Shown here: piece by piece, positions 1 through 60,001 of the stretch | Layout: the number at the start of each line of letters is the position of its first letter | How positions within the stretch are numbered: position 1 is the stretch's first letter | From: a virus | Taxonomy: Duplodnaviria > Heunggongvirae > Uroviricota > Caudoviricetes | Strand: one strand, 5' to 3' | DNA: 64,000 nt | Virus record (IMG/VR): IMGVR_UViG_3300002641_000714 | Position numbers and translations under genes: made by a program | Notes under the pieces: model-generated | Databases searched by the model: none | What the model saw: only the letters and a program-made list of their open reading frames with translations | What the model was told of the DNA's origin: nothing

Positions 1-1914
1 TTTGGCAGTCATGGTTTAAAAGATGGTGAACCTGCAACATTTATGACTGTTAACGGTTTATCTGAAGAAGACGTTTTAGAAATTCTTCAAGAGTTCTTAG
101 ATAATTCTGATACATGTAATGATGCTGAAGCATATATTATAAATAGTGAAGATATATATCTTAATGATAAAGACGGAGAACCTATTGATTATCCACCATA
201 TGATGATATTGAATCTGAAAAAGATTTTCCAGAATATGAAGATATTGAAACTGATGACTTAGATCCTGAAGAAGATGTATTAAATGATGACTTTTTATTA
301 AATGAAGGAGAAGATATTCTTGAAGATGCTCAAGAAGAACTTAGAGGTTTATTATCTAATTTAGGAGAAAATGACAATATCACATTTGATAATGATGTTG
401 AATTAGAGGATTATACAGTTATTTCTATTGAAGCTAATGGTGATATGGAAACTGCAGACGGAGATATTATTAATGCTTTTGATTTAACAGATGCTGATGA
501 TATTTTTACATTATGTGATGTTGTTAAAGATGAATTAGATAATGAAGCTGCATATCCTGATTATGATGATGTTGATGACAAAGAAGATGAACTTCCGAGA
601 TTTGAAAAAATTCATAAAGGACGTCATCTTGATGAAAAGAAAAAGAATAATTGCTGTCCTGGGACAAAAACTGTTAATGAGTCAGCGATTGATACTGTTT
701 TAGCCGATCTTGATGCTAAAATATTAAATGAAGCTAAAGAAGAAGAAAAGAAAAATCAAAAAGAGCTTGAAAAGAAAACTCTTAAGGCATTAACAGAAAA
801 CAAACATTCATTACATGAAAATGTAAGATATAATGGCAAATTATTTGCTAAAATGACTCTTAAAGAATTAAAATCTATTTATGAAACTGTTAAAGCTTCT
901 ATAGATGCATTATCTGAAAGAGCGTTAAATGAAAGTGTAGTAGATACCAAAATGGTAGAAACTATAAACAAAAAGAAACAACTTCTTGAATTCTTAGATG
1001 AAGAAATCACATATAGAACTACCAGAATAGAATGTTTAAACAAACTTAATGAAGATGGCGCTGAGATTTCTGATGAAGAACTTGCTAATTTATTTGGTCC
1101 TGCTCAAGGAGAGGATGAAGCACCTGCAGATAATGGAGGTGATGACGCCAAGAGTGAGACTTCAAATGAAGAAGGAGAAGAGAATAAAGAAGGTAACGAA
1201 GATGAAAATAATGAAGAAAGTGAAGAGGTTGAATTATCTCGTATTGAAATAACATTAAAAGATGCAGAAGCAGCTAATGATTTGAAGCAAGCTTGTTTAG
1301 ATGCAGATATTCCAGAAGATGCATTTGAATTAGAAAATGTAGAGGATGATACATTTGAAGAAGGCGAAGAAAATTCTGAGAAAGAAAATTCTGAGGAAAG
1401 TTCTGAAAAATCAAGTGAAGAAACCACTGATGAAGAAAATTCAGAAGAAGGCACTAATGAATCTTATGAATTTGCCAAATATGTAAAAATGTTAGGTGAA
1501 GGTGAAGTTGCCGATGAACAACCTGCAGATGATGCAGCCGGTGAAGAAGGTGGTGAAGAAGAGAATGGTGCAGAGAATGCAGACGGTGAAGGTGACAAAG
1601 AAAACACTAAAGAAAACTCTGAAGAAGAGGAAGAAGATAAACAACCTAAATTCATTTTAACTAATACTGATTATGCTAGCAAATTGGCCAAAGTATTAGA
1701 AGATGTATATGGAATTTCTAAAGAAGAATTTGAAGATATGATTGGTGGAGAAATCGTCGAAGAAGAACCTAAAGAGGATGAAGAAAATTCAGATAAAGAA
1801 GGTTCTGAAAATTCAGAAGAATCTAAAGGTGAAGAATCTAAAGAGGATTCTGGAGAAAAGAAAGATGATGAAGAGGATGAACTCGATCCATCAGACTTAT
1901 TTAAGAATCTATAA
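1..1914 (+). CDS. Extremely acidic D/E-rich protein (5' partial; the frame is open from the window start)
   Basis: The frame is open from nt 1 (FGSHGLKDGEPATF precedes the first ATG at 43). Long runs of D/E (EEEE, DDD) and repeated SEE/EEN blocks; stop TAA at 1912-1914. The antisense Ser-rich ORFs within it are artefacts of the GAA/GAT repeats. Confidence 0.6.
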   Translation, partial: FGSHGLKDGEPATFMTVNGLSEEDVLEILQEFLDNSDTCNDAEAYIINSEDIYLNDKDGEPIDYPPYDDIESEKDFPEYEDIETDDLDPEEDVLNDDFLLNEGEDILEDAQEELRGLLSNLGENDNITFDNDVELEDYTVISIEANGDMETADGDIINAFDLTDADDIFTLCDVVKDELDNEAAYPDYDDVDDKEDELPRFEKIHKGRHLDEKKKNNCCPGTKTVNESAIDTVLADLDAKILNEAKEEEKKNQKELEKKTLKALTENKHSLHENVRYNGKLFAKMTLKELKSIYETVKASIDALSERALNESVVDTKMVETINKKKQLLEFLDEEITYRTTRIECLNKLNEDGAEISDEELANLFGPAQGEDEAPADNGGDDAKSETSNEEGEENKEGNEDENNEESEEVELSRIEITLKDAEAANDLKQACLDADIPEDAFELENVEDDTFEEGEENSEKENSEESSEKSSEETTDEENSEEGTNESYEFAKYVKMLGEGEVADEQPADDAAGEEGGEEENGAENADGEGDKENTKENSEEEEEDKQPKFILTNTDYASKLAKVLEDVYGISKEEFEDMIGGEIVEEEPKEDEENSDKEGSENSEESKGEESKEDSGEKKDDEEDELDPSDLFKNL

Positions 1915-1935
1915 TACATGAAAAACTAATAAGCG

Positions 1936-1968
1936 CACTGGATTTCAGTCCAGTGTTTGCTCGTTTTT
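1936..1968 (+). terminator. Rho-independent terminator after the acidic-protein gene
   Basis: 7-bp GC-containing stem cactgga (1936-1942) pairs with tccagtg (1949-1955) around a 6-nt loop, followed by the T-run tttgctcgttttt. Confidence 0.55.
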
Positions 1969-2105
1969 CAATTAGTTTTCATTTTTGTGGAGGAATGGCT
2001 TGTGAAAGTCGTTCCTTTTTATTATAAAACAATTAAATAAATTTATTTTATAATATATATAATTTTTGTAATAAATAAGAAGAAAAATGAAAACTAATTA
2101 AAATA

Positions 2106-2294
2106 ATGCAATTATCTGAAATATGTAATAATATTAAAGAACATATTATATCGTGGTATAATATGTTAATTGATTATTTTAAAAAGTTAACATCTAAAAA
2201 ATCAGAAATAAATAATCAAAATGTTGACCAAAATATTCATATTATTAAATATAAGGTAACACATGTTAAGATAAAGAAGAAAAATGAAAACTAA
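2106..2294 (+). CDS. Small hypothetical ORF (uncertain)
   Basis: 62-codon ORF ending TAA. Its start is preceded by the same 22-nt element (aagaagaaaaatgaaaactaat) that precedes the 2301 gene, so it may be a small leader gene or may be spurious. Confidence 0.25.
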   Translation: MQLSEICNNIKEHIISWYNMLIDYFKKLTSKKSEINNQNVDQNIHIIKYKVTHVKIKKKNEN

Positions 2295-2300
2295 TATATT

Positions 2301-3389
2301 ATGGCACAAATTAGATTTTTTCAACACTTAAATGAACAAGATGACAATTTTCAAAAAGTAACAACTTTGGATTATATTGATAATTCAGAAGGTTTTACTA
2401 TGTATTATTTTAAAGATGGCTCAAGATGTAATAAACAATATATTGCACCAGTAAATGCAAATTCGATTGAAGGTTATGAATTTGCTGAAGTTTCAAGTCA
2501 ATATAATATTTGGAAATTAAATTATGTAGTTCCTAAGATAGAAAAAACAAGAACTGCAACAAATGCACAAGGTGAAATAGTTGAAGCACCGACATGGGAA
2601 GAACTTACACAGAGTACCGCTGTCAGAAAACCACGAATTGATGTAATAGGAAAGCCATCAAAGATAGAAAATTATAAAGCTCCTGATGATAGTGAATATT
2701 TTTTTGATTATGATACATATACTGCACAAAAACAAAAAACAGCAGATGTAAAAGAATCTAAATCATTTGATTTTAATAATAATACTACTATAGAAGCACC
2801 TAAACCCGCATCTAAATTTGAAGTTGTAAAAGATACAGATGTAATTTCATATGCTTATAGTTTAGATAAAAATGGAGTATTGCATATTAATGCTGATGAA
2901 TTTTTAAGAAATATTAAATCAGTTCAAATAGAAATTGGCGGAACTGCATGTGAATTATCTACTGAAGATTTTATTGAAAATGCCATTACGCCAAAAGAAG
3001 AAAAAGTAGTTGAAAAAGTAGTTGAAAAAGAAGTATTGGTTAAAACTTCTGATACTGATATTGATCTCGGTGTAAATAATGATCAAAAATCTCTTATTGA
3101 TAATATGATCAATATGTCTAATAAATCAGAATATTCTATTGGCATTGAATTTACATTAAATCTTCCGCCATCTTCAATTTATAAACTAATTAAAACTGCA
3201 TATCCTGAAGAAATGTCTAAAGGTTTTATTAATATTTTAGCAAATAGAATGCAAGTTAAAGAACTTAAAACCTCTGTTGCTGACGGTTTATTAGCTTTTT
3301 ATGATGAAGATATTAATGAAAATCCTTCTATTCAAGAAGAGAATTCAAAAAATAGTGATAAAAAAACCGGGCGTCCAAAAAAAGCATAA
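2301..3389 (+). CDS. Hypothetical protein with a C-terminal basic AT-hook-like tail (KKTGRPKKA)
   Basis: Uninterrupted 362-aa ORF with non-repetitive composition, TAA stop, and no in-frame TAG. Confidence 0.6.
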   Translation: MAQIRFFQHLNEQDDNFQKVTTLDYIDNSEGFTMYYFKDGSRCNKQYIAPVNANSIEGYEFAEVSSQYNIWKLNYVVPKIEKTRTATNAQGEIVEAPTWEELTQSTAVRKPRIDVIGKPSKIENYKAPDDSEYFFDYDTYTAQKQKTADVKESKSFDFNNNTTIEAPKPASKFEVVKDTDVISYAYSLDKNGVLHINADEFLRNIKSVQIEIGGTACELSTEDFIENAITPKEEKVVEKVVEKEVLVKTSDTDIDLGVNNDQKSLIDNMINMSNKSEYSIGIEFTLNLPPSSIYKLIKTAYPEEMSKGFINILANRMQVKELKTSVADGLLAFYDEDINENPSIQEENSKNSDKKTGRPKKA

Positions 3390-3454
3390 CTTAATTAAAT
3401 CTTATAAATATTTAAAAATAATTTGTATCTATAATATTAATGGGAACAATATAT

Positions 3455-3910
3455 ATGACATCTGATAGTGAAACCAAATTGCGATCAATATATTCAAATT
3501 TAAAAAATTATTATATATTAGATGTATAGTCTTTTATAAAAAGTTTAAATTTAGATATGTCAAAAGCAAGTAGTATTTTTATTATCAATGATGAAATTTA
3601 GTCATTAATGACATAGCAATTAAATCTTAAAAAATATAAAGGTGTTATATATATTAATAAACATTTATCAAAAGATTTATTTAATTCTTTTAAATATCAA
3701 TTTAAAAAGGATGGTAATGATATTAGAATAGTACTTATTGATAATGGACAGTTTCCAAAACATTAGGATATAATGGATGTTTTTGATGAAGTTATTTTTT
3801 ATGACAGATTTAAGAAAAATAAAATTGTAGAATTTAATGGATTTGAAAAAAATTCTAATGATATTATTAATAGTATAGATATGGATGAAAATAATTTGTA
3901 TAATGAATAA
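3455..3910 (+). CDS. Hypothetical protein whose gene contains 5 in-frame TAG codons (read as Gln)
   Basis: ATG at 3455. A 152-codon frame with no TAA or TGA but 5 TAGs (3527, 3599, 3614, 3764 and one more). Translation is protein-like (MTSDSETKLRSIYSNLKNYYILDVQSF...). The TAA stop overlaps the next ATG (taATGg at 3908-3912). Missed by the standard-code ORF track. Confidence 0.55.
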
Positions 3911-5304
3911 TGGAAGATGATATATCAATTGGTAGTTTAGACACATTAAATAGTTTACAATCACTAGAAGAACAACAAGATATTTAGCCGGATTTATCAA
4001 AAGTTTAGGAATTACTTGCTAATATTAATACAAATGTTGAATAGGTTAAAGGTATTTCATTTAACCCAGATGGTTCATATGTTGTTAAACAAAGTAAAAC
4101 TCTTCGACAATTAATGGCGATGGTTCAGCAATGGTGGCATATGGTTTGTAATTTAAAAAATATTGATTTTTCTGATTTAAATAATTATGTTGAAGAACAG
4201 CCTGAAGAAAATGGAACAGTTTCTATTAATGCAATGGTTTATATGAATGCTGCTTTTGATATGTATGGTCGTGCATATAGACAAGGTATGGTATGCCCAA
4301 TATGCGGAAAGAAAGCAAGATATTTACCGCCGGGTGGATATTGCTCTACAAAATGTTTACTTCAGGCTGCCAAAAATAAATCACTTGCATTTTTAATGGC
4401 ACCTAATGAAAAATATAAAAGTTTATAGCAAACAGTTAATCAATTATACGGCATTTTAAAACATACGAATTTAATTATTAATGCATTAGTAATGATTCCA
4501 GATATTATTAGAGAATTGGGGTCATTTCCAATTGAATATCGAAATTTTGTTCAATGCAAAATTGCTGAAGGTTTTACAGATTTACAATGTTTAATATAGG
4601 AAGCAATGGTTTATAAAACACAATTATTGCAAAAAATGTTAAAACCCGTTATGACTGGTGTTATTGCAAAACCTGTAGCAACAGGAATGCAAACAATTAA
4701 TTTAATTGTACAATCATTACAAATTGCATAGGAGGCTTTTTAGATTGCATATGACACTATTAAAATTATTATAGATAGATTATCTATTCCAGAAATAGCA
4801 CCGGGATTGGTTATTCCCGCATAGTCACATGCATGGGCATTAACACCTAGATCATTTATTTGCCCTACATTTCCGCCAACGGGAACACCTGATTTAGGTA
4901 AAATATTTGTTATTTTACCAGGCGCAATGAAAAGTCCGCTATACCCTTCATCATTACAAAGTATTAATACATAGTCAATTGATGAAATTGTATAGAAATT
5001 ATTTCCACCATTAACACCAGCTGATTATTATTTAGAACCTGAATTATTCCAAATACGATATTTATTTAGTGATCAAAGCGATTTGGTATCATCTGTAATA
5101 TAGCAATTAGAAGATTTATTAAGATTTGGCCCAGATTATATTCCGGCTTTTGAAAATTTATTACCTGTTAAAGCATATACTGTTAATGGTGATAATGTAT
5201 ATCTTCCAAATGTCGCTTATATATGGTTTGTTTTAGGCCTACTTGATTCGTGGGCACCACATAGTATGGCATTAGTTGGAAATATATTTAATCCAACTGC
5301 ATAA
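3910..5304 (+). CDS. Hypothetical protein (464 aa) with a CxxC...C zinc-ribbon-like segment and 13 in-frame TAG codons
   Basis: I translated it by hand from ATG 3910 to TAA 5302-5304 in one frame. The track's ORF 4114..4428 is an internal fragment bounded by TAGs. There is a TGA stop immediately upstream (3904-3906). Contains GMVCPICGKKARYLPPGGYCSTKC. Confidence 0.6.
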
Positions 5305-5306
5305 AT

Positions 5307-5337
5307 AAAAAGCTAGTAATATTTTTACTAGCTTTTT
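5307..5337. terminator. Bidirectional terminator hairpin between convergent genes
   Basis: Perfect 13-bp stem aaaaagctagtaa / ttactagcttttt around the loop tattt. It lies between the plus gene ending at 5304 and the minus gene ending at 5361. Confidence 0.6.
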
Positions 5338-5360
5338 ATAACTTATTGTAAATCAATTAG

Positions 5361-5690
5361 TTAATAACCAAGTTCAGCGCCAAGTGCCCCCATCACCAAT
5401 GAAGAAGTTAATAATTTTCCAAGAGTTCCATTTTGATCAATACCAAGTATTTTACAAATAGCTCTCATAATTGCTGGGCCTATAGTAGAACCGGCGACAC
5501 CACCAAGTAAAGCAGTAAATAAACCTTCATCCATTATGTCATCAAGTGATTTTCCTTCTTCTTGTGCAATTGCTGCTGATTCAACAATATAATTAAATAA
5601 TTTTTTTGCATTTTGCACTTCTTTAACAGAAACACTTTTTAAATCAACTCCTTCGAATAACTCATTAGTTGCATGTGAATGCTATATCAT
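5361..5690 (-). CDS. Small glycine-zipper membrane protein (1 in-frame TAG)
   Basis: The track ORF 5361..5618 starts at a GTG. The frame stays open upstream through one TAG to an ATG at 5688-5690. C-terminal GLFTALLGGVAGSTIGPAIM...MGALGAELGY is glycine-zipper-like. Confidence 0.45.
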
Positions 5691-5720
5691 AATAAAATAT
5701 ATTATTTTTATTATTTATTT

Positions 5721-5885
5721 TCAAAACAAACCCTTCTTAGATTTAGTTTTTGTTCCAATAATTGTGATTTTCTTTGTTGGTTCTTTTTGTTCTGCCTTTA
5801 TAATTAATGATGGTGCAGATTTTAATTCTAGATTTTTATGTCCGCATCCAGGGCAGAATGTTGCTATTTTCGGAGATAATTTCAT
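5721..5885 (-). CDS. Small zinc-ribbon protein (54 aa)
   Basis: ATG at 5883-5885 and TGA at 5721-5723. Contains CPGCGH. It falls below the track's length cutoff. Confidence 0.4.
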   Translation of the reverse strand: MKLSPKIATFCPGCGHKNLELKSAPSLIIKAEQKEPTKKITIIGTKTKSKKGLF

Positions 5886-6284
5886 TTATTTTTTTATTTG
5901 GTTTATATTATCTAAAGTAAATTTCTTTAGTTTGAATTCATTTGCACCTTTAACAGATGCATTGAATATATAACTATTATTATCAAATTTATGAACTACA
6001 CAGCCTTCATATATTTGTCCGTCTTTTAGTGATTCCCATAAATAAACCGGACGAAGTTGTTCAGCATCAATACCTAAATCCAAATCAAGATTTTTTGTAT
6101 TTATAGTTCTTCTAATTTGATAATATGTTTTTTCTGCTTCTTTTTGAATTTTTTCTTCTTCTTGCTCTTCAGCTTCATCTGCGATATCTTGTTCTTCTTG
6201 TGCTTCTTCTTCTAAATCTTGAATATACATTTCTCGCTCAATATCTCTATTATCGATATCGTATGTTATATCATCTACTACCAT
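5886..6284 (-). CDS. Hypothetical acidic protein
   Basis: 132-aa ORF with a TAA stop and an acidic EEEAQEEQD stretch. Confidence 0.55.
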   Translation of the reverse strand: MVVDDITYDIDNRDIEREMYIQDLEEEAQEEQDIADEAEEQEEEKIQKEAEKTYYQIRRTINTKNLDLDLGIDAEQLRPVYLWESLKDGQIYEGCVVHKFDNNSYIFNASVKGANEFKLKKFTLDNINQIKK

Positions 6285-6335
6285 TTCTTTCTTATTATAA
6301 TTTTTTTTACTATTTATTAAAAATATTTTTAAAAA

Positions 6336-7109
6336 TTATTCACTGAATTTTTCATGCCAATATTCATGACTTGACTTGTAAAATTCATACATATTTTGTG
6401 TATTATAATCAATATTGTCATTTTGTTTATCACGAATATCAGATGGGTTAACATCTTTGTCTTCTTGAATAACTAAAGGAATTGTGCATATATATGTATT
6501 TAGTTCTGGTTTGTCAATCGGTGCACAATATAAAGGTCCATCAGCAACCCAGAAAAATTTGTCAATAAACTCAAGATAATATTCCATACCTTTACGAGAA
6601 AGTGCATACATGGAGGCATTCCATATTGGAACATGTGGATGTTTTACCCAATATTCATCTTTATGATTTAAAACCTCCTCTACTATTCGTTCATCTACAG
6701 TAAAACCACCAAATTGAAGAATATCAAAATCACTAGGAATATTATCTAAATATTTTTCCCACAGTTTTTTATCTTCAATAAAAAGAATATCATCTTCCAT
6801 TATTAAACAATATTGATAGCCTTGATCATATGCTTGCTTTATCATAGAATAATGATTATGTGTACAATCATATTCATTAGGCTTTGTTAATCGCCCTAAT
6901 TTATTTTGATTGAGAACGTGCATCATTACAGTATTATATTTCTTAAATGGAACAGTTGTTCTAATATCAAGATCAGATTGTCTAAAATTATTAGGCAATC
7001 CGAAATCAAATAATTGTTGAATCATTTTATATCGTCTATCTCCTCGAGTTGAAAGATTCAACATAAAAATATGTTTGAATTTCTTTTTAAGTTTTTCAAA
7101 TATTTTCAT
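6336..7109 (-). CDS. Glycosyltransferase family 25-like protein
   Basis: The N-terminal HIFMLNLSTRGDRRYKMIQQL resembles the GT25 (LPS glycosyltransferase) signature VINLxRSxDRR. Has a DD motif (IMEDDILF). TAA stop. Confidence 0.5.
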   Translation of the reverse strand: MKIFEKLKKKFKHIFMLNLSTRGDRRYKMIQQLFDFGLPNNFRQSDLDIRTTVPFKKYNTVMMHVLNQNKLGRLTKPNEYDCTHNHYSMIKQAYDQGYQYCLIMEDDILFIEDKKLWEKYLDNIPSDFDILQFGGFTVDERIVEEVLNHKDEYWVKHPHVPIWNASMYALSRKGMEYYLEFIDKFFWVADGPLYCAPIDKPELNTYICTIPLVIQEDKDVNPSDIRDKQNDNIDYNTQNMYEFYKSSHEYWHEKFSE

Positions 7110-7260
7110 TTTATAAACAAATTAAAAATTTTTAATTATATGGTTTTAATATAAAAAGTTTCTTAAATTCAAATAAATCATTTTTAAGAGACTTTTTTAT
7201 TGTTTTAATGATTTATATATTTTATATATTTTAACTCACCAGAAGTCAAATAAATAAGCT

Positions 7261-8337
7261 CTAATCAAATAATTCATTATTTAATGCTTCTGCACATTCT
7301 TGTATAATTTTTAAACCATATTTTCCAAGTTCGGTTACTATCTCATATGCTTCCTGAATTTGTTCTTTTCTAGGATTATATGCTCTGTATCCCATTGACA
7401 TAATTTTTTCTTCATTCGTCATATCATCAGATATTTTGGTATCCATAATAAGTTTCATATGATCCAAACCATACTTATTAACTAATGCATTCCATTGGGA
7501 TTCTGTAAATACACGAGTGCTGCTATTGTATAATGGGTGGTTTGTATAATATTGAATACCATAAGGAACTTTTGTTGTATTTTTACCATTAGTAACAATA
7601 AAGCATATACACAAATTATACCAATCGATTGACACATCTTTAATAGTCCATTTTGCATATACATCGGTATAATTAATCTTTTCGCCGGTATTCATATCAT
7701 TTATAAATGTAGGGTAATAAAACTTATTTCGCTCGGTAAATAAACAACGGCATTTATTAGTGGCAAATACTAATTTAGAGCCTCTAAGAGATACACAATA
7801 TTCAAGATGTTTCTCCACAATAAACGGAAAATCCATAAACATATCAAAACAAATTTCGCTATCACCATATGCATGATATATGAATTTCAATTTATCACCG
7901 GTATTAAGATCTACCAAATGAAATACCCATGTATATTTATAACTTTTAGGATGATATGACATTACTTTCATTACATAAAAACGGTGTGCTTCTATGTGGC
8001 GTTTATGTGTCCCTAACAATTTGCTATCTCTATAATCAGAATAATCAGATTTATAATTATAATATGAATTATATTCAGACGTTTCATTATCATTAAAGGA
8101 ATAGTCTTTAAACCAATGATATAATTCACAACTTAAATCACCAGATTCATAACGGGAACGAGTAATAGGTAAAAGATATAATATCTCACCTTCGTATGCT
8201 TTAGCATTTTCAAATTGGTAATTGCATGTTTCATCAAAATCTGCATTAGCAAATACTGCAATTGAACTAATAATAATTGATAAGATAATAACTAACCGTT
8301 TCATTATGATTCCTCCTATTTTTAATTTAATATGCAA
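7261..8337 (-). CDS. Secreted hypothetical protein with a signal peptide
   Basis: Internal MKRLVIILSIIISSIAVFA looks like a signal peptide, so the true start is likely near 8304. The stop is TAG (7261-7263). If TAG is read through, there are 5 extra codons to a TGA at 7246. Confidence 0.55.
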   Translation of the reverse strand: MHIKLKIGGIIMKRLVIILSIIISSIAVFANADFDETCNYQFENAKAYEGEILYLLPITRSRYESGDLSCELYHWFKDYSFNDNETSEYNSYYNYKSDYSDYRDSKLLGTHKRHIEAHRFYVMKVMSYHPKSYKYTWVFHLVDLNTGDKLKFIYHAYGDSEICFDMFMDFPFIVEKHLEYCVSLRGSKLVFATNKCRCLFTERNKFYYPTFINDMNTGEKINYTDVYAKWTIKDVSIDWYNLCICFIVTNGKNTTKVPYGIQYYTNHPLYNSSTRVFTESQWNALVNKYGLDHMKLIMDTKISDDMTNEEKIMSMGYRAYNPRKEQIQEAYEIVTELGKYGLKIIQECAEALNNELFD

Positions 8338-8372
8338 AATTAATACTTTTTATTTAAAAGAAAAAATAGAAG
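8320..8372 (-). promoter_or_regulatory. Conserved early/middle promoter-like motif (partial instance)
   Basis: Contains ...gcaaaattaatactttttatttaaaag-aaaaaatagaagc, a member of the ~55-nt family described in the findings. It sits immediately upstream of the 7261..8337 gene. Confidence 0.4.
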
Positions 8373-8418
8373 CTAATTTTTTATTAACTTCTATTATTTT
8401 CTAATATTTGATATCTAA

Positions 8419-9636
8419 TTATTGTACTTTTTCAAGTTCATAGCTGAAAAAAGCTTTATACTTAAAAACCCCATATACAACTTTATAAAGTTTTCTGGTT
8501 TTTCCATCATTAGATCTAGTGTCCAAAATCTCTGCAACACATCCTTTAATACCCATTGATTTAATATATACTAAATCACCTATTTTGAATTTAGCTTTAC
8601 CTGAACGCGGTTCACTTGGAACTTTATCTTCTTTACGGAACTCACAGAATTGAATTGGATTTGTTTTCTTTGGTTTTTCTTTTGCTACTTCAATAGGCTT
8701 CTCATCAAAAATCTGATTACCAAGAATATCCATTACTGAATTAAATTTCAATCGTCCTTCAGCTTCCTCATTCAAAATCTCATAAATATCACAAAATTGT
8801 TCAAATGTAATATCAAATGATTTATTTGTATCAAGTGTCAATTTAATAATATTTACAGTATATCGAGATTTTCCATTTCTTTTACGGTGTTTCAAAAGAA
8901 CCGCATATTCATCTGTAAGTTGTTTATATAATGCAAAATCCTTTTCATTTTTTACATATTCGGGTTTTTGTTTAGGAATATTAACATTATCTAATTCTTT
9001 AATAAGCCGTTCAAATCCAGATTTTGTACAATCTTTTAATTTATTAACTGTGCTTTTAACTGTTTCTTTTGAATCATCTACAGTATTTTTAAAAGCATCA
9101 ATTAATTGGCTGATATCTTTATCAAAATATTTGCGTTCTTTGCAGGTATTAAATTTATCTTGCAACCATTTAAAATCGAAATTACGATTAAATTTAGTAT
9201 CTGGAAAATACTCACTAATGTACTCACTAACAGTTTCAGCATATTTATCTATGCTATCGATAAATGCCATTTCTTTTCCAGCAAGAATAGCCATATTATA
9301 ATCAGAATAAATGAATAAATCATGTTTACCTTCATATAGTAATATTCCATTAATATTATTTTTATACACTTTAATATATGTATGTTCTAAACGTTCACAT
9401 TTACTATTCATCATATCCAATGATATATAAACCTTTACAGGTGTATTTGGATGAGATTTACTAGCAGCATAACCAACCAGCATTTTAACTTTGGTGTCAT
9501 GAATAAACATATCATACTGAAGCTTTTTATAGTCTTCTTTATTTAATGTATTTCCATGATAAAAACCTTTATTTTCATCATATACAACAACATAATCCGG
9601 TTGCATTAACATTTTCTCTAAATATTTGTTACTCAT
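8419..9636 (-). CDS. Hypothetical protein
   Basis: 405-aa uninterrupted ORF with a TAA stop. Confidence 0.6.
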   Translation of the reverse strand: MSNKYLEKMLMQPDYVVVYDENKGFYHGNTLNKEDYKKLQYDMFIHDTKVKMLVGYAASKSHPNTPVKVYISLDMMNSKCERLEHTYIKVYKNNINGILLYEGKHDLFIYSDYNMAILAGKEMAFIDSIDKYAETVSEYISEYFPDTKFNRNFDFKWLQDKFNTCKERKYFDKDISQLIDAFKNTVDDSKETVKSTVNKLKDCTKSGFERLIKELDNVNIPKQKPEYVKNEKDFALYKQLTDEYAVLLKHRKRNGKSRYTVNIIKLTLDTNKSFDITFEQFCDIYEILNEEAEGRLKFNSVMDILGNQIFDEKPIEVAKEKPKKTNPIQFCEFRKEDKVPSEPRSGKAKFKIGDLVYIKSMGIKGCVAEILDTRSNDGKTRKLYKVVYGVFKYKAFFSYELEKVQ

Positions 9637-9656
9637 AATTTATATAATTTTAATTA

Positions 9657-9932
9657 TTATTTCTTTTTCTTATCTGTCCATGTCCATGTAGCGCAATGCT
9701 TCATAATTTCAGGATCAATATCTCTAAAATCATTAAAATCAATTTCAGAAATAGGCATTTTAAGACCGGTTCCCATGTAATTACAACTAATCCATGCATA
9801 ATCTGGATCTGTATTATATGTATTAACACAAATAGGGTGTGAGATTGGTTTTCCCATTTCTTTCAACTTACTTACAATCTTTTCATAAGTCGGATTCGCT
9901 TCTTCTTTTACTGTTTTTGCCATAATTTTCAA
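9657..9932 (-). CDS. Hypothetical protein
   Basis: 91-aa ORF with a TAA stop. The early promoter-like motif lies upstream at 9947-9989. Confidence 0.5.
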   Translation of the reverse strand: MKIMAKTVKEEANPTYEKIVSKLKEMGKPISHPICVNTYNTDPDYAWISCNYMGTGLKMPISEIDFNDFRDIDPEIMKHCATWTWTDKKKK

Positions 9933-9994
9933 TATTTTAATTTAACAATACAAAATTAATACCTTATAATTAAACTAAAAAATAGAAGCTTTAA

Positions 9995-10696
9995 TTATTC
10001 TTCCAAAAATTTAAAATGCCTTTCGTATACATGCAATGAACCTGCATTCCAAATTAATTTACCTCGATAAACAGGACATCCTAATTTTTCAGATAAATCC
10101 TTAATCATCTTGTCAAAAACATACATATGCCAACATGCATCATTACAAAATCCAAAAACTGCATCATTACTTCTCATAAATACATGATAATCAAGCATAT
10201 AACCATCTGCAATATGTCCTTCACTATCTTTAATATCATTCAAAAAACATTGAACTGCATAGGTACAACAAAAATCATGTTTATGATTAGATGTTGCGTC
10301 AACATGCATATTTGGCCTATTATAAATCATGCAAGCTTCTCTTGTTACCAGGTCATTAACTAATTGCCAAATACAATTATTATATTGTGATCCATTTTCT
10401 TTAGAATAAATCATCCAACCATAATTTGAATTAATGTCACCATTTACATCTGCACATTGTTTCCAAATTGTCGGCGCGCCTCCTGGAATATCATTAACAT
10501 TTAATGATTGTGATTCATACCATTCAATTTCACGTTTTGCATAATCATAATTCGGTTCACGAATAATAGAATCTTTGTCAGCTTCAAATTGAATGCCTTG
10601 CAATTCAACCGTTTTTACACCAGTTTTTGTTATTCTGAAATCACCATTTTTATACTTTTCTACTAAAAGTTTCTTTACATCTTCTGTCTTTAACAT
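9995..10696 (-). CDS. dCMP hydroxymethylase (thymidylate-synthase fold, T4 gp42-like)
   Basis: Matches T4 gp42 as I recall it: TKTGVKTVELQGIQF, IEWYESQSLNVNDIPGGAPTIWKQ...GDINSNYGWMIY, MRSNDAVFGFCNDACW, GKLIWNAGSLHVYERHF. Asp in the FGFCND position, where thymidylate synthase has Asn, suggests dCMP specificity. Confidence 0.8.
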   Translation of the reverse strand: MLKTEDVKKLLVEKYKNGDFRITKTGVKTVELQGIQFEADKDSIIREPNYDYAKREIEWYESQSLNVNDIPGGAPTIWKQCADVNGDINSNYGWMIYSKENGSQYNNCIWQLVNDLVTREACMIYNRPNMHVDATSNHKHDFCCTYAVQCFLNDIKDSEGHIADGYMLDYHVFMRSNDAVFGFCNDACWHMYVFDKMIKDLSEKLGCPVYRGKLIWNAGSLHVYERHFKFLEE

Positions 10697-10701
10697 AACT
10701 A

Positions 10702-11262
10702 CTAATTAAACTCTTTTATTATTTCTTCTCGGCTTTTAAACTCATCTGTATTTTCTTTATTAACATAAATTATATGTTTATTTCTTAATAAAGAATGATC
10801 ATATGCAGTTTTGAATAATTCTAATTCTTTTTTAATTAAATCAATATCTGCATTTGATAAAGATTTATTATCATCATTTTTTCTAAGTAATTCCGGTGAT
10901 GTTGATAATAATTGAATATATAAAATATCATCTTGCGGAATTTTCTCTAAAATATGTTTTTCAATAAGCTTTATTGTTTCAAGAATTTGTTCAGGATTTT
11001 CATCTCTATAAAGTTGTCCATAAACATATTCTCCAATATAATACCGATTATATATCAATATATTATTATCATTGTTTATATAATCTTTTATTGCAATATC
11101 AGCTAATGATTTATAATTAATAAATTGGTGATATAATACATTTTGTTTAACTTTTGGTTTACTACAATGAATAACCTTTACAATTTCGTTATTTTCTAAA
11201 ATATTATTAATAAGTGTATTCTTACCGGTATTATCCGGTCCATCAATAATAATTACCTTCAT
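10702..11262 (-). CDS. dNMP kinase (T4 gp1-like)
   Basis: The P-loop IIIDGPDNTGKNTL has the unusual GxxxxGK(D/N)T form of T4 gp1 (GVKRSGKDT). Adjacent to the hydroxymethylase. Ends TAG TAG, then 2 codons and a TAA overlapping the next ATG. Confidence 0.6.
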   Translation of the reverse strand: MKVIIIDGPDNTGKNTLINNILENNEIVKVIHCSKPKVKQNVLYHQFINYKSLADIAIKDYINNDNNILIYNRYYIGEYVYGQLYRDENPEQILETIKLIEKHILEKIPQDDILYIQLLSTSPELLRKNDDNKSLSNADIDLIKKELELFKTAYDHSLLRNKHIIYVNKENTDEFKSREEIIKEFN

Positions 11263-11334
11263 TAAGAATAATTTAATTTTTCATTTAATATTTTATGATA
11301 ATATTTATAAATTGTTTAATAATTAAAAACAAAA

Positions 11335-11356
11335 GGTTGAACTTAAAAATTCAACC
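11335..11356 (-). terminator. Terminator hairpin
   Basis: ggttgaa / ttcaacc stem with an 8-nt loop. On the minus strand it is followed by ttttgttttt. Confidence 0.5.
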
Positions 11357-11377
11357 AAATAATTAAAATATTTCAAA

Positions 11378-11695
11378 TTAAATCATAATAACAAAGTTTT
11401 TTGCAGAATCATATTCATTAGTTGTACAAACCAAAGTATGTGCTTTATTAACTGCCTGTAATGATGTTACATCAAGATTTGGATTAACAGAACCTACAAT
11501 AAATAAATCATAATCATTCAAATTTGTTGCATCCTTCATCTCACCGATTATTGTATTATAATTATCAGTATCAAAATAACGTGTACAAATAACTGCATTT
11601 TCAATCTGACGTGATGCATATTTCTCAAGTTTCTTAATAAATTTTGTCATTTCCAGTCTGTCATTGGTAATAGCTGTTACAATTATTGTTTTCAT
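11378..11695 (-). CDS. Hypothetical protein
   Basis: 105-aa ORF with a TAA stop. Confidence 0.5.
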   Translation of the reverse strand: MKTIIVTAITNDRLEMTKFIKKLEKYASRQIENAVICTRYFDTDNYNTIIGEMKDATNLNDYDLFIVGSVNPNLDVTSLQAVNKAHTLVCTTNEYDSAKNFVIMI

Positions 11696-11847
11696 ATATC
11701 TTTTAAATTATTTTTTATTATTTAATTATTATAAATCTTTATAAAATAATGTTTCAAATTTTACAGTAAAAATGAGTAAAATTTTTCATTTTGCCCATTT
11801 TCTTTTTAATTAAAAATAAATATATTACAAAATAATACATAGTAAAA

Positions 11848-13035
11848 ATGAATAAAAAGATAATATATGAATCTATAATGAGTTTAGTTGCTAAACAAGT
11901 AAAAAATGTGCTTAATGAGTATAGAACTGCCGCACCTGAACATAATATAGATATAACAGATCTTAAACAATTTTTAAAAATGACTATACAGGAATGGATT
12001 TATAAAAAATTTACATCTATTCCAAATTTAACAAATAGATTTTATAGTTTTACATATGAACCTTATGGCAAATTGACTCTTTATATTGGTTCGGTATATT
12101 CAAATCAACCTATAAAACTAACAATTTCTCCTTAGCTTGGTTATTATAATATTAGAGAAGATTTGTAGAAAATTCAAGAATATATTAAAAAACATAAAGA
12201 ATTTAAAATTATATCTTCTAAAATTCAAACATTATAGCAAATACAAGTTGAATATAATTTTAAAAAGGATGATGATTTACAACTTGCACTGGCAGATGCC
12301 GAAAGAAAATTTGATATGGAAGTTGATGCAACTGATACTGATGAATATGCGCCAACAGTAAGAGACTGGATGAAAATGATTGATTATAAAAATAGACATT
12401 CAAATCCAGAAAGAGTTGCAAATTCATGTAAAGATAATAATAAAATAGTTGCCAGATATATTATTGCAAATACATTAGGATGGAAAGAAGCAGTTAAAGC
12501 ATTTAAAGATAGAATATATGATTTGAATATATTAAATGATGCACAGCTTGAAGCATATAGAAGAAAATATGCAACATATAATATACCTGAAGATATAAAA
12601 GAATTAATAGTTGATCTTCAAGAATATGATGAAAAGGGTGGTTTTGGAGAAACAGAACATTCTGAAATATTTCCTGAAAATCTTAAAAAATATATACATT
12701 AGAATAATAATATTAATTCTTATAAAATTGAATTAATTGATGGGGCTCCAGTTAAAGAACATAGAACACAAAGACATAGAATTGATGCACATCATTATGA
12801 TTATCATTCAGATACAGTTCCTCAAGGAACTATTGATCAGGCTAAAGTAACTTTTAAGCTTTTTGATAATTCTGAAGTAGAATTATATTATGTATATAGA
12901 AAAAAGAATGGAAATTATGTTGGACGTTTTTATAAAAGCAAAATTATATTATATGATTGGGATGAATATAGACGGTTATTTAATGCAACATCTGCTGTTC
13001 ATACATTAAAATGGTGTTTTGATGAAGAAGATTAA
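11848..13035 (+). CDS. Leader-family-2 protein (395 aa) with 4 in-frame TAG codons
   Basis: N-terminal MNKKIIYESIMSLVAKQVKNVLNE leader. The track ORFs 11848..12135 and 12316..12702 share one frame and are joined through TAGs at 12133, 12166, 12235 and 12700. Ends TAA at 13033-13035. The late-type motif aaaaataaatatatta is upstream (11812-11828). Confidence 0.6.
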
Positions 13036-13043
13036 AAAACAAA

Positions 13044-13065
13044 GGTTGGAATTAATTTTCCAACC
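13044..13065. terminator. Bidirectional terminator hairpin
   Basis: ggttggaa / ttccaacc 8-bp stem with T/A runs on both sides. It lies between the plus gene ending at 13035 and the minus gene ending at 13071. Confidence 0.6.
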
Positions 13066-13070
13066 TTTTC

Positions 13071-13433
13071 TTACGCACTAAAACTTATAGTTTCATATCC
13101 ATCATCTGTCAATTTTTCTAATTCACATGTAGAATCTGTGCATGGTTGCCAACTTCCGTATTTTGAAGATTCTTGCAATGCATCTACAGTAAATATTACC
13201 CGATCAATATTTGTATCACCTGTTTCTTTAATATAGTCAATACAACATTGAACCAGCCGGTCTTGAAGTTTTTTTGCAAGTTTATTTTGGTTTGGATCTG
13301 CTAATAATTGTTCTCGTTTTTTAATGTCTTCAACTTCTTGCTCAAGCTTTTCAAGATGATGTTTTACAATTCTATCTTTTTTATCTTGAGATAATTTCTC
13401 AAATTGTTCCATAATTTTTTCAGGTTTTCTCAT
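13071..13433 (-). CDS. Hypothetical coiled-coil protein
   Basis: 120-aa ORF with a TAA stop. Confidence 0.5.
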   Translation of the reverse strand: MRKPEKIMEQFEKLSQDKKDRIVKHHLEKLEQEVEDIKKREQLLADPNQNKLAKKLQDRLVQCCIDYIKETGDTNIDRVIFTVDALQESSKYGSWQPCTDSTCELEKLTDDGYETISFSA

Positions 13434-13436
13434 AAG

Positions 13437-13640
13437 TTACTTCACCATTATTACTTTAATTGTTGTATTTTGTTTTTGCATTTCTTCTAATAAAACAATC
13501 TTATGTTCAAGTGAATCTACTTTATTTTGGTTTTCAATAGCAATATTATGGCTGTCTATTGCAATTTCAAAAATCATAAATAATAGAATTCCAATTATAA
13601 CAAATACAATACCTAAAAATATTTTCCAATTCGTTGACAT
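13437..13640 (-). CDS. Small membrane protein (one TM helix plus a coiled coil)
   Basis: Hydrophobic segment IFLGIVFVIIGILLFMIF. TAA stop. Confidence 0.45.
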   Translation of the reverse strand: MSTNWKIFLGIVFVIIGILLFMIFEIAIDSHNIAIENQNKVDSLEHKIVLLEEMQKQNTTIKVIMVK

Positions 13641-21939: not shown

Positions 21940-23046
21940 TTAATTAGTTTCCATTAAATATGCTTTAATAAATTCATCAATATTTCCATTCATAACAGAA
22001 TCTACATCAGAAGTTTGATAATTTGTTCGATGATCTTTTACACGTTTATCATCAAAAACATAACTTCTAATTTGTGCGCCCCAGCCAATTGGCATCTTTT
22101 TATTTTCTATTTCTGCTTGAACTTGACGACGTTTTTCAAGCTCTAATTCATATAATTGGCTGCGCAAATGTTGCATTGCAATTTCTCTGTTTTTCGGTTG
22201 GTCTCTTGATTCTGTACTTTCTGCTACCAATTCATCTTCCTGTCCGGTTAACGGATTAATAAACTTATAATGAAGTCTTACCCCAGATTCAACTTTATTT
22301 ACATTCTGCCCGCCTGCGCCAGAAGATCTAAATGTATCCATTGTAATATTTGCAGGATTAATATTAACTTCAATAGAGTCATCTACTAATGGACATACAA
22401 ATACACTTGCAAAACTTGTCATACGTTTTCCTTGTGCATTATATGGACTTACCCGCACTAATCTGTGTATACCTGTTTCTCCTTTAAGATGGCCATATGC
22501 AAAATCTCCATATACATTAAATGAAACAGTTTTAATTCCTGCAGTATCGCCTTTTTGATAGTTTGTTATTTCTCCTGTAAAATTGTGATTTGCAAAATAA
22601 GATAGATACATTCGCATTAACATTTCGGCCCAATCTTGTGCTTCAGTTCCACCTGCTCCAGCCACAATTTTTAAAACTGCAGGCATTTTATCCTCATCAT
22701 TATTTAGCATTGTTTGCATTTCATATTTAGAAATCGTTTCTAAACATGTATTATATAATGATTTGGACTCCTCTTGAGACAATTCTTCATCAGATAACAA
22801 TTCTAAATAAGTAATGTTATCATCAGTTAAATTAATATCATATAGCAAGTTAGATAAATTTTTCCAATCTTTCGAAATTTTTTCTGCCATTTTTGCATCA
22901 TTCCAAAAAGCTGGATCATGCATTCGCATATTCAACTCATTTTCTTGATTCTTTTTATCTTCAAAATGGATACAATTTTTTAAATATTCAAATCGCTTTC
23001 GAAGTTCTTTAACATTAATATTTGAATTTAACATTTTCATTCCCAT
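21940..23046 (-). CDS. prfB: Class-I peptide chain release factor, RF2-like
   Basis: Has the GGQ motif (SSGAGGQNVNKVESGVRL). The tripeptide anticodon region reads RLVRVSPYNAQGKRMTSF (SPF-like SPY, not the PxT of RF1). Continuous ORF with no +1 frameshift site. Confidence 0.8.
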   Translation of the reverse strand: MGMKMLNSNINVKELRKRFEYLKNCIHFEDKKNQENELNMRMHDPAFWNDAKMAEKISKDWKNLSNLLYDINLTDDNITYLELLSDEELSQEESKSLYNTCLETISKYEMQTMLNNDEDKMPAVLKIVAGAGGTEAQDWAEMLMRMYLSYFANHNFTGEITNYQKGDTAGIKTVSFNVYGDFAYGHLKGETGIHRLVRVSPYNAQGKRMTSFASVFVCPLVDDSIEVNINPANITMDTFRSSGAGGQNVNKVESGVRLHYKFINPLTGQEDELVAESTESRDQPKNREIAMQHLRSQLYELELEKRRQVQAEIENKKMPIGWGAQIRSYVFDDKRVKDHRTNYQTSDVDSVMNGNIDEFIKAYLMETN

Positions 23047-39661: not shown

Positions 39662-40483
39662 ATGAAAAACTATAAACAAATATTAGAAGCAATTAATCGT
39701 GGTATTAAATTTGCATTAGACGATTTTGAAGATCAAGATGATATTCAAGGTTAGGATAATAGTAAAGTTAAGTATAAAGGCGGAATTAAAGACTGGTTAG
39801 ATTTAATGAGTGATGTTGTTGATTTAGGACTACCTTCAGGAACTCTTTGGTGCAAGTATAATTTGGGATGTGAAACTGAATTATTAAATGAAGAAGGTGA
39901 AAATAGTGTAGCTGATTGGTGGCAAGGTGATTATTTTGCCTGGGGTATTAATCAGCATAATGATTTTTTTACATGGGGGTCTTATGATTATTCAGACTGG
40001 GCTATAAAAATGTTGCCTAATTTAAAAACAGAAAATTGGGTTCTTAAATTATTTAAATATTGTTATGAAAAAGATACAGTTGCATCTATATGTGATGAAC
40101 CTGATAATAAAATGAAACTTGATTTGGAAGATGATGCAGCTTATGTAAAAAATAACAAATACTGCATACCGTCTACAGAACAATTTCAAGAATTATTAGA
40201 TAATACAAAACATAAATTTGTTGCAAATTATAATAATATTTCCGGACTAAACGGTATATTATTTGCATCTATCTATAATCAAAATACAATATTTTTTCCG
40301 CTTGCAGGTTATATGAATGAAGAAAATATCAGAAGAAAAAATACACAAGGTTTTTATTGGACATGTGATTTAAGCCCAAAATATCAAACATGCGCAAATT
40401 CATTTAATTTAACAAAGAAAACAGTAGAAGTTGGAAGTTATAGACGTGACCAAGGTTGTTCAATAAGGCCTGTATTAAAATAG
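39662..40483 (+). CDS. Leader-family-1 protein A with a DUF1566-like domain (1 in-frame TAG)
   Basis: ATG at 39662. Leader MKNYKQILEAINRGIKFALDDFEDQDDIQG, then TAG (39752-39754) exactly where paralogs E and F have Gln (QGQ), then DVVDLGLPSGTLWCKYNLG, YFAWG, IPSTEQFQELL and a C-terminal SIRPVLK. Confidence 0.65.
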
Positions 40484-40501
40484 TAAAAAAAACTCTAAAA
40501 T

Positions 40502-41341: not shown

Positions 41342-41354
41342 ATTAATTATTTAA

Positions 41355-42554: not shown

Positions 42555-42564
42555 AGAAAATATA

Positions 42565-45293: not shown

Positions 45294-45366
45294 AATAAAA
45301 TTTTATTTCTTGCGGATGTTCTTCTACTAAACCATACTTAATCATCATTCGATATGTAAAATTTCG

Positions 45367-45579: not shown

Positions 45580-45604
45580 TTCGCATCCGCAATATGCGCA
45601 GTGT

Positions 45605-59959: not shown

Positions 59960-60001
59960 AATTTTATATATACATTTCTATTCAATATATTTATTAAAAC
60001 A

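Follow-up and report, generated by a model that had tools for sequence, protein, structure and literature searches.

A predicted T4-type dCMP hydroxymethylase paired with a thymidylate-kinase-fold kinase in a TAG-recoded, Lak-like megaphage

A stretch of phage DNA of 64,000 nucleotides (the window) carries, next to each other on the minus strand, genes for a nucleotide kinase and for a homologue of the dCMP hydroxymethylase (dCH) of phage T4. The reading that we consider probable is that a folate-dependent dCH of the T4 gp42 type and a coupled kinase of the RB69 gp45 subfamily would together provide 5-hydroxymethyl-dCTP (5hm-dCTP) for the phage DNA. The two genes are:

10690 to 11262, minus strand: nucleotide kinase with the thymidylate-kinase fold, RB69 gp45 / YorR-like subfamily (assigned by fold, profile and motifs)
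9995 to 10696, minus strand: T4-type deoxycytidylate 5-hydroxymethyltransferase (dCH, gp42 homologue), 233 aa (assigned by Pfam, PHROG, PDB and active-site residues)

The source is a TAG-recoded, Lak-like megaphage of ~28% GC. Its major capsid protein is 60% identical to that of the Prevotella Lak megaphages, the relationship to Lak being established at the protein level alone, through this protein; a megablast search of positions 9000-13000 against INPHARED gave no match. Close relatives are contigs of 263-498 kb, and the full genome of the window phage probably measures several hundred kb. With the Lak megaphages (Lak-A1, -B, -C; Devoto et al. 2019) it has in common a low GC content, the TAG-to-Gln recoding and genes for the kinase, for a GT25-family glycosyltransferase and for a 320-aa protein of GT-A fold, homologues of all three being present in the complete genome of Lak-A1. 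However, Lak-A1 possesses a canonical ThyA, and dCH was not found anywhere in its genome. Thymidylate synthase, hydroxymethylation and DNA modification are not mentioned in the papers on Lak or in the preprint on Jug phages.

The initial annotation had described the minus-strand ORF 9995-10696 as a homologue of T4 dCMP hydroxymethylase, a claim borne out by a near full-length match to PDB 1b49 (T4 dCH; E=1.7e-56, residues 5-231 against 9-225). The ThyA-family profile search that it had proposed as a check, together with an inspection of the active site, returned Pfam PF00303 (Thymidylat_synt; 47.5 bits, cutoff 24.3) and found the hydroxymethylase residues kept; among PHROG families the product matches phrog_160 (E=2e-42). 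Its identity is 45% to the T4 enzyme and 50% to that of CkP1, compared with 20% to RB69 gp48 and 21% to E. coli ThyA, and tblastn against T-even gp42 gives 43-49%. With T4 gp42 (PDB 1B49, 1B5E, 6A9A) it shares the fold, the length class and 43-45% identity, but it has an insertion of ~11 residues after the catalytic strand and lacks the last ~20 residues of the T4 protein. The kinase-dCH module does not represent a novel type of system; more than 2,800 gp42-like proteins are found in the database at E<=1e-10.

A study of the T4 ternary complex named 24 residues as catalytic or ligand-binding, of which 20 are identical in the window enzyme. They include Glu60, Ser94, Tyr96, Asp145, Cys148, Asp171 and Asp179 and also His216, Tyr218 and Arg220. 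The catalytic Cys (T4 C148) corresponds to Cys144, the folate-activating Glu (T4 E60, E. coli E58) to Glu56 and the pyrimidine-specificity Asp (T4 D179, Asn177 in E. coli) to Asp186 in the motif FGFCND, each of them invariant in 120/120 metagenomic homologues. The hydroxymethylation signature of T4 (D145, which is L143 in E. coli, with Ser94 and Tyr96) is present as Asp141, Ser90 and Tyr92, while the position of E. coli D169 / T4 D171 is occupied by Asp178 (RSND). Overall the active-site signature is kept in 118-120 of the 120 homologues. Judged from these alignments, the catalytic residues are strongly conserved across the clade and the family is under selection. The window enzyme departs from T4 at four ligand contacts (V85C, R124E, S144H, R177C). 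In T4 gp42 the partner subunit contributes two arginines that bind the phosphate; R124, a Glu in the window protein, is one of them. In thymidylate synthase the equivalent arginine is dispensable.

Since the protein belongs to the Pfam family Thymidylat_synt, PHROG and NCBIfam name such proteins 'thymidylate synthase' and no separate ThyA is seen in the window, three other identities have to be considered: thymidylate synthase (with dTMP as product), dUMP hydroxymethylase (5hm-dUMP) and dCMP methyltransferase (5-methyl-dCMP). All three are very improbable and were rejected because of the active-site residues. Asp in place of Asn at E. coli N177, the feature of FGFCND already pointed out in the initial annotation and now aligned as Asp186 with T4 Asp179, rules out dUMP specificity, and Asp in place of Leu at L143, with the Ser/Tyr pair, is a signature of hydroxymethylation and not of methyl transfer. 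Moreover, the scores with the NCBIfam ThyA equivalogs, 18-25 bits, are far below the cutoffs of 174-405, and E. coli ThyA as query finds the Lak-A1 ThyA at E=6e-60 but the window protein at 3e-06. On the evidence of its sequence, the ORF is a T4-type dCMP hydroxymethylase and, as had been claimed from the start, not a thymidylate synthase.

Another group of ThyA homologues lies close in its key residues. The RB69 gp48-type enzymes have recently been described as 5-hydroxy-dCMP synthases (Lee et al., NAR 2026, PMC13326640), and production of 5hodCMP was shown for gp42-like ThyA homologues that carry N177D and L143D/E (PMC13326640). RB69 gp48 and DLP3 gp80 have in common with the window enzyme the ThyA superfamily, N177D, an acidic residue at L143 and a thymidylate-kinase-like kinase nearby, as well as sugar-nucleotide genes in some relatives: 5hodCMP synthases are accompanied by such kinases and by UDP-galactopyranose mutase, and in one relative (L003) a mutase of this name adjoins dCH. 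A flavin/O2-dependent synthase would lead to DNA with glycosylated 5-hydroxycytosine rather than 5hmC, but it is scarcely credible for the window. Asn at the E. coli D169 position is diagnostic of 5hodCMP synthases (PMC13326640), and RB69 gp48 has this Asn along with a Phe at the E58 position. In contrast, the window protein has Asp178 (Asp in 118/120 homologues) and keeps the Glu58 equivalent, hence it is not of the flavin type. In addition, it is only 20% identical to RB69 gp48 versus 45-50% to the T-even dCH enzymes, and homologues of the T4 alpha- and beta-glucosyltransferases, which act on hmC, occur in relatives.

The kinase ORF covers 10702-11262 (minus strand, 186 aa) when read with code 11, and its 3' end reads AAT TAG TAG TTA TGT TAA. 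In the Lak-type code (code 15, TAG = Gln) it covers 10690-11262 and encodes 190 aa; near-identical database proteins end in ...FNQQLC. The initial annotation took the product for a gp1-like dNMP kinase because of its P-loop. The loop, GPDNTGKNT, is indeed there, but the pattern is not diagnostic and no similarity to T4 gp1 extends beyond it. With hhalign, 34 columns (the first 34 residues) were aligned at 52% probability; phmmer against the PDB, T4 gp1 (1DEK) included, gave no match to the kinase; structural similarity to 1DEK was not found; and T4 gp1 as a tblastn query matched nothing in the window or in Lak-A1. Membership of the gp1 family was rejected, the likeness being confined to the P-loop region and the fold being that of thymidylate kinase. 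The profile comparison with RB69 gp45, on the other hand, reaches 97.3%, and the Tmk fold, the P-loop and an (N/D)R...VYG motif are shared with the RB69 gp45 / YorR-like subfamily, to which the kinase belongs; among known structures it is likened to YorR of the B. subtilis phage SPbeta (PDB 2AXP/3KB2). What remains in common with T4 gp1 (PDB 1DEK) is the P-loop form GxxxxGK(D/N)T and, plausibly, an analogous role in converting hm-dCMP to hm-dCDP. The T4 enzyme accepts hm-dCMP, dTMP and dGMP as substrates, but not dCMP.

In code 11 there are 5 nt between the kinase and dCH genes, and in code 15 they overlap by 7 nt, the dCH start codon included; from this arrangement the two genes are read as translationally coupled. 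The closest relative has the same pair, and in a 498-kb relative (L029) both genes are inverted together, with the flanking genes unchanged. In L017-L020, whose dCH is 53-60% identical to that of the window, kinases of the window family are found <5 kb from dCH. One of these, L019, displays the order kinase then dCH, with a genuine T4 beta-glucosyltransferase (PF09198, E=1.5e-24) coming next, and its kinase reaches 99.5% in hhalign. Given the coupling and the recurrence next to dCH in diverged phages, the kinase could phosphorylate hm-dCMP.

However, this kinase family belongs to the core genes of Lak and also occurs in the dCH-less Lak-A1, next to gp32 (SSB) and ~5 kb from the canonical ThyA, and may thus simply be the dTMP kinase of the phage, thymidylate kinase being its fold. 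The comparison with characterized clusters points in two directions. In the modification clusters of DLP3, RB69 and RL38J1, thymidylate-kinase-like nucleotide kinases and the ThyA homologue are 1-2 genes apart (PMC13326640), but phosphorylation of modified dCMP in RB69 was demonstrated for the gp1 homologue and not for gp45 (PMC13326640). RB69 and DLP3 have such a gp1-type dNMP kinase in addition to the thymidylate-kinase-like one, the kinases RB69 gp45, DLP3 gp78 and RL38J1 gp214 are without demonstrated substrate, and their clusters make 5-hydroxycytosine and not 5hmC. Unlike them, the window family is a core gene of dCH-less Lak phages too, and in L003 the kinase adjoining dCH is a different one (28% identical). 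It is therefore conceivable, if not the reading we favour, that dCH is genuine while its neighbour is a general dTMP/dNMP kinase in an incidental position and the hm-dCMP kinase, for instance one of the gp1 type, is encoded elsewhere. Such a view has to accommodate the coupling of the two genes and their joint inversion, the same kinase family beside dCH in far more distant phages, one of them with a T4 beta-glucosyltransferase, and a gp1 homologue that is undetectable in the window and in Lak-A1.

The coupled genes have the character of a two-gene cassette, situated at a locus that varies within a lineage of TAG-recoded, Lak-like megaphages of Prevotella. The genes that flank the dCH locus (105, 91, 405, 358 and 132 aa) have no homologues in Lak-A1. 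Two further features of this neighbourhood are:

7261 to 9932, minus strand: three genes between dCH and the GT25 gene, of 91, 405 and 358 aa (recognized by synteny)
11335 to 11356, minus strand: terminator-like hairpin with a T-run after it, located between the kinase gene and the 105-aa gene upstream of it (terminator scan)

The three genes are kept with the dCH locus in L003, L013 and L028, whereas tblastn found no match to them in the whole Lak-A1 genome. Their products have no Pfam, PHROG or PDB match, that of 358 aa begins with a signal-like segment, and an IMG/VR scan with the 405-aa protein returned the known contig as the sole hit. The hairpin is the only terminator-like site in 5500-12500, and kinase and dCH may form a transcription unit of their own that begins there; as the scan expects ~1.1 sites by chance, it is weak evidence. 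A sigma-70 promoter scan of the same interval yielded 52 sites versus 63 in shuffled sequence, with a consensus that is inappropriate for a Bacteroidota host. Inverted-repeat arms flank the pair (9971-10002/11264-11295, 75% complementary; 9923-9942/11361-11380, 90%), but in DNA of 72% A+T they are indistinguishable from chance; as a sign of mobility they were rejected and are not used here.

A broader reading can be put forward tentatively: a mobile cassette that pairs a T4-type dCH with a kinase of the RB69 gp45 type might have turned one sub-lineage of TAG-recoded, Lak-like Prevotella phages into phages with hmC-DNA, the kinase serving as a dedicated modified-dCMP kinase in place of gp1, and relatives might add different decorations at or near the hotspot. 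These decorations would involve either a T4 alpha-glucosyltransferase or the UDP-galactopyranose mutase that adjoins dCH in L003 together with a 376-aa protein of the same phage which has no useful PDB match.

As to sugar decoration in the window phage itself, two proteins had been named as candidate modifiers:

6336 to 7109, minus strand: GT25-family (GT-A) glycosyltransferase, 257 aa (Pfam PF01755, phrog_2835, PDB)
61435 to 62397, minus strand: 320-aa GT-A-fold glycosyltransferase-like protein (invariant D86-x-D88 motif)

The glycosyltransferase folds are real. The first protein matches Glyco_transf_25 (PF01755; 40.9 bits, cutoff 24; E=2.6e-10), phrog_2835 and, in the PDB, the GT25 protein 8xlz and procollagen galactosyltransferase, and it contains a DxD-type motif within MEDDILF; a PDB search with the 320-aa protein gave nothing useful. 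The suggested connection with hmC, in contrast, is weakened. The GT25 gene keeps its relative position in dCH-positive relatives. Each of the 15 Lak A/B/C genomes also encodes a counterpart of its product with 49-52% identity, and of these genomes Lak-A1, the one checked in full, lacks dCH. Both proteins are conserved in this dCH-less phage (44-50% identity) and thus have no specific link to hmC; the 320-aa GT-A gene, 50 kb from the kinase-dCH module, is probably unrelated to it. No homologue of the T4 alpha- or beta-glucosyltransferase (PF11440, PF09198) was found in the 64-kb window by Pfam and PHROG scans or by tblastn with T4 beta-GT and the alpha-GT homologue of L029 as queries. The setting thus differs from that of T4, there being no adjacent beta-GT and the host genome being that of a TAG-recoded Lak-like megaphage. 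In L029, a homologue of the T4 alpha-glucosyltransferase (E=1.1e-11 to 1xv5) lies ~7 kb from the kinase-dCH pair.

How far cytosine would be replaced is a separate matter. The 64-kb window contains no detectable dCTPase/MazG (tblastn with T4 gp56; Pfam and PHROG scans of ~70 ORFs), and no dCMP deaminase, gp1-type kinase, UDP-sugar enzyme or C-DNA nuclease was found in it, so there is no sign in the window of dCTP being excluded from the nucleotide pool. Palindrome avoidance was uninformative as a sign of DNA protection: for all 16 four-base palindromes the observed/expected ratios of the window and of dCH-positive relatives are similar to those of Lak-A1 (window versus Lak-A1, GATC 0.75 vs 0.59, CATG 0.73 vs 0.72). 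Several relatives encode C5 DNA methyltransferases near dCH, which make little sense without unmodified cytosine. Together with the dCH-less Lak-A1 and the missing dCTPase and C-DNA nuclease, this could mean that 5hm-dCMP is made while the replacement of cytosine is partial or conditional, or that the gene is a recent accessory with little effect on virion DNA. We regard this as rather unlikely, since the ~64 kb examined belong to a genome that probably measures several hundred kb, the dCH catalytic residues are strongly conserved across the clade and relatives carry dedicated hmC glucosyltransferases. Synthesis of 5hmC by the window phage is well supported, and its DNA probably contains modified cytosine.

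In the proposed pathway, Cys144 would attack C6 of dCMP, with Asp186 reading and protonating the cytosine and Glu56 activating methylene-THF. A water molecule placed by Asp141, Ser90 and Tyr92 would then convert the exocyclic methylene into the hydroxymethyl group. The kinase would bring its substrate, most likely hm-dCMP and perhaps dTMP, to the diphosphate, after which 5hm-dCTP would be made and incorporated into the phage DNA.

If this is true, some of the largest known gut phages would contain hydroxymethylated cytosine, which in some relatives is probably glycosylated. Hydroxymethylation or glycosylation makes DNA resistant to many restriction enzymes and to many CRISPR nucleases, and modified DNA can bias library preparation, restriction-based methods and base-calling, which would have a bearing on the detection and quantification of uncultured Lak-like phages. 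The recurrent association of dCH with a kinase of thymidylate-kinase fold also suggests a function for the kinase class found in the hypermodification clusters of RB69, DLP3 and RL38J1. Finally, since the trait varies within the group, Lak-A1 having ThyA and no dCH, these phages offer a natural comparison for the benefit that hmC may bring to a megaphage.

The two genes at the centre of the locus lie head to tail:

9995-10696 (-), ThyA-like dCMP hydroxymethylase (dCH), 233 aa
10702-11262 (-), kinase, 186 aa, upstream of the dCH

The dCH scores 47.5 bits against Pfam Thymidylat_synt, above the threshold of 24.3. Among solved structures, those of T4 dCH are by far the closest (E=1.7e-56, residues 5-231), true thymidylate synthases reaching only about E=2e-3, which upholds the reading of the initial annotation that the enzyme is T4-like and not a thymidylate synthase. 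In tblastn searches, gp42 genes of T-even-like phages rank best among 982 matching records, with 49% identity to Citrobacter phage CkP1 and 43.5% to T4. The protein was aligned with T4 gp42, RB69 gp48, two other T-even-type enzymes, seven metagenomic relatives and E. coli ThyA. When the catalytic and ligand-contacting residues named in a study of the T4 ternary complex (PMC6400193) are mapped on this alignment, 20 of 24 are identical (T4 numbering: K28, N53, Y56, R59, E60, I81, W82, S94, Y96, R123, D145, F146, C148, S169, D171, F174, D179, H216, Y218 and R220) and four are changed (V85C, R124E, S144H and R177C). The Asp of FGFCND pointed out at the outset does occupy the specificity position (T4 D179, E. 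coli N177).

Since N177D and L143D are both present, a thymidylate synthase or a dUMP hydroxymethylase is rejected; a dCMP methyltransferase is rejected less firmly than the other candidates. The same N177D and L143D/E are found in RB69 gp48 and DLP3 gp80, gp42-like ThyA homologues that use flavin and O2 to make 5-hydroxy-dCMP, and such synthases are diagnosed by Asn at the residue equivalent to E. coli D169 (Lee et al., NAR 2026, PMC13326640). At this position the window dCH carries Asp178 (RSND), as in T4; it retains the folate-activating Glu, which is Phe in RB69 gp48, and is only 20% identical to the latter, so that a 5-hydroxy-dCMP synthase is rejected. The 120 closest metagenomic homologues all share E58, L143D, C146, R166, S167, N177D, H207 and Y209, and 118 of the 120 have Asp at D169. 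On the strength of these residues, the low identity to gp48 and the conservation among homologues, the dCH is very probably a 5hm-dCMP synthase, i.e., a T4-type dCMP hydroxymethylase. The virion DNA of this phage likely contains 5hmC.

The kinase had been annotated as a gp1-like dNMP kinase. The P-loop (GPDNTGKNT) is indeed there but is the sole resemblance to T4 gp1: hhalign aligns the first 34 residues and nothing further (52% probability), phmmer against all PDB sequences gives no match, and the gp1-like identity is rejected. A 32-sequence family profile matches only weakly, to PPK2, SPbeta protein YorR and guanylate kinase. In hhalign runs made like for like, the family matches RB69 gp45 (97.3% probability, E=2.6e-11; 35% for E. 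coli Tmk), as well as the kinase adjoining the dCH of L019, a 15.7-kb IMG/VR contig (99.5%). RB69 gp45, DLP3 gp78 and RL38J1 gp214 are thymidylate-kinase-like “nucleotide kinases” of three cytosine-hypermodification clusters, each encoded one or two genes away from the ThyA homologue; RB69 and DLP3 have a separate gp1 homologue besides (PMC13326640).

Under code 11, kinase and dCH are separated by 5 nt. The kinase 3' end reads AAT TAG TAG TTA TGT TAA (window 10690-10704), and the closest database kinases (98% and 82% identical) end in ...FNQQLC, TAG TAG being aligned with QQ; the kinase gene model of the closest contig is not translatable under code 11. With TAG as Gln, the kinase stop and the dCH start overlap by 7 nt. 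The arrangement is repeated in the closest relative (L028), and in a 498-kb contig (L029, identical to L013) both genes are flipped together, still bounded by the 105-aa and 91-aa genes. In L017-L020, a kinase of the same family lies within 5 kb of a dCH that is only 53-60% identical; L019 runs kinase, dCH, DUF7487, Mom-like protein and a clear T4 beta-glucosyltransferase (PF09198, E=1.5e-24). Occurrence of the kinase family in Lak-A1, a reference genome of the Prevotella Lak megaphages, where it adjoins gp32, counts against the pairing, as does the different kinase found beside the dCH in L003. Action of the adjoining kinase on hm-dCMP is plausible, and slightly favoured.

The L019 genes belong to a compact putative DNA-modification cluster (470-8181) that also comprises a UDG-like and a CofD-like protein, its kinase being thymidylate-kinase-like. 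Imperfect inverted repeats at 9923-10002 and 11264-11380 (32 nt, 75% complementary; 20 nt, 90%) flank the window pair and may well be due to chance in such AT-rich DNA. A close relative, the 263-kb JGI contig Ga0139362_1000225 of L003 / L012 (most neighbouring proteins about 75-95% identical), carries another cassette at the same site (10001-13489): dCH, a different, thymidylate-kinase-like kinase (28% identical), a 376-aa protein without known function and UDP-galactopyranose mutase. Its resemblance to the RL38J1 cluster suggests that this phage decorates modified cytosine with galactofuranose. In several unrelated-looking contigs, the gp42-like dCH has a C5 cytosine DNA methyltransferase gene (PF00145) as neighbour or within a few kb (L005, where it is immediately upstream, L015, L018, L024, L025 and L029).

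Two further window proteins had been proposed as hmC modifiers:

6336-7109 (-), GT25-family protein
61435-62397 (-), GT-A-fold protein, 320 aa

Both fold guesses were right, because the former is a genuine GT25 protein and the latter, which has no sequence-family match, is modelled with confidence as a GT-A fold and has an invariant DxD motif. A dedicated role in hmC modification is nevertheless disfavoured by their conservation in Lak-A1, which has no dCH. The T4 hmC transferases also differ from both in fold class. In L029 an alpha-GT homologue (E=1.1e-11 to PDB 1xv5) is encoded about 7 kb away from kinase and dCH; the 64-kb window contains no homologue of this protein, of T4 beta-GT or of the L003 mutase. 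The suggested search for a dCTPase (gp56-like, MazG) found none in the window, nor a dUTPase or dCMP deaminase (Pfam and PHROG on about 70 ORFs, several re-translated with TAG as Gln; tblastn with T4 gp56). This is absence of evidence only, since the window represents a minor share of a genome that likely spans several hundred kb.

The whole Lak-A1 genome (MK250016.1, 541,643 bp) was retrieved and searched locally. It has no match to the window dCH, T4 gp42 or RB69 gp48, and no homologue of the 105-, 91-, 405-, 358- or 132-aa genes bordering the dCH locus, so the dCH is an accessory gene confined to one Lak-like sub-lineage. This dCH-less phage does share the kinase (522461-523000, 37%) and both glycosyltransferase-like genes (GT25 49%, 320-aa protein 44%) with the window. 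Its ThyA, at 528202-529209, is canonical (34% identity to the E. coli enzyme, E=6e-60). Within about 8 kb (521047-529209), Lak-A1 groups a gp32-like SSB, the kinase homologue and ThyA; the gene upstream of SSB is the kinase in Lak-A1 and the 320-aa GT-A-like gene in the window. Palindrome statistics do not separate the window from Lak-A1.

At the nucleotide level, nothing in the INPHARED phage collection is related to the window (G+C about 28%). The major capsid protein (36633-38201(-)) shares 60% identity with its counterpart in the Prevotella Lak-A, -B and -C megaphages. Other gene content is consistent with a very large T4-related myovirus and includes gp32-like SSB, gp46/47-like SbcCD, primase, a family-B polymerase fragment, tail sheath, RNA ligase, tRNA nucleotidyltransferase, an RF-1-domain protein and PhoH. 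Evidence points to TAG encoding glutamine (code 15), the same recoding as in Lak phages: coding sequence rises from 51.9 to 57.4 kb when TAG is counted as sense, many fragments fuse into long ORFs, and one fused ORF of 464 aa, interrupted by 11 in-frame TAGs, corresponds to a gene called at 463 aa in the closest contig.

21940-23046 (-), RF-1-domain release-factor gene
3910-5304 (+), TAG-as-Gln ORF
11848-13035 (+), TAG-as-Gln ORF
57977-60028 (-), TAG-as-Gln ORF

Paralogues of a multi-copy family, read with TAG as Gln, lie at 39662-43501(+), at 57210-57980(-) and in the C-terminal part of 57977-60028(-). They share a near-identical N-terminus, MKNY(K/N)(Q/K)ILEA(I/V)NRGIKFALDDF, followed by differing C-terminal domains; one member has DUF285 repeats (Pfam E=5e-97) and two code-11 fragments match phrog_17273 and phrog_3649. 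The match of the polymerase ORF (43537-45084(-), 515 aa) to phrog_262, a profile of the full-length enzyme, falls mainly in the C-terminal region (573-841 of 856), so the polymerase may be split. A candidate HNH endonuclease, recognized by eye, lies directly upstream (45268-45744(-), TAG as Gln).

Enzymes like gp42 are already known in numbers (more than 2,800 proteins in the database at E<=1e-10), and no mention of DNA modification was found in the Lak phage papers that were searched. The novelty is modest and resides in three points: hmC genes occur in a sub-lineage of Lak-like megaphages, the dCH locus behaves like a cassette, and the partner of the dCH is a gp45-type kinase.
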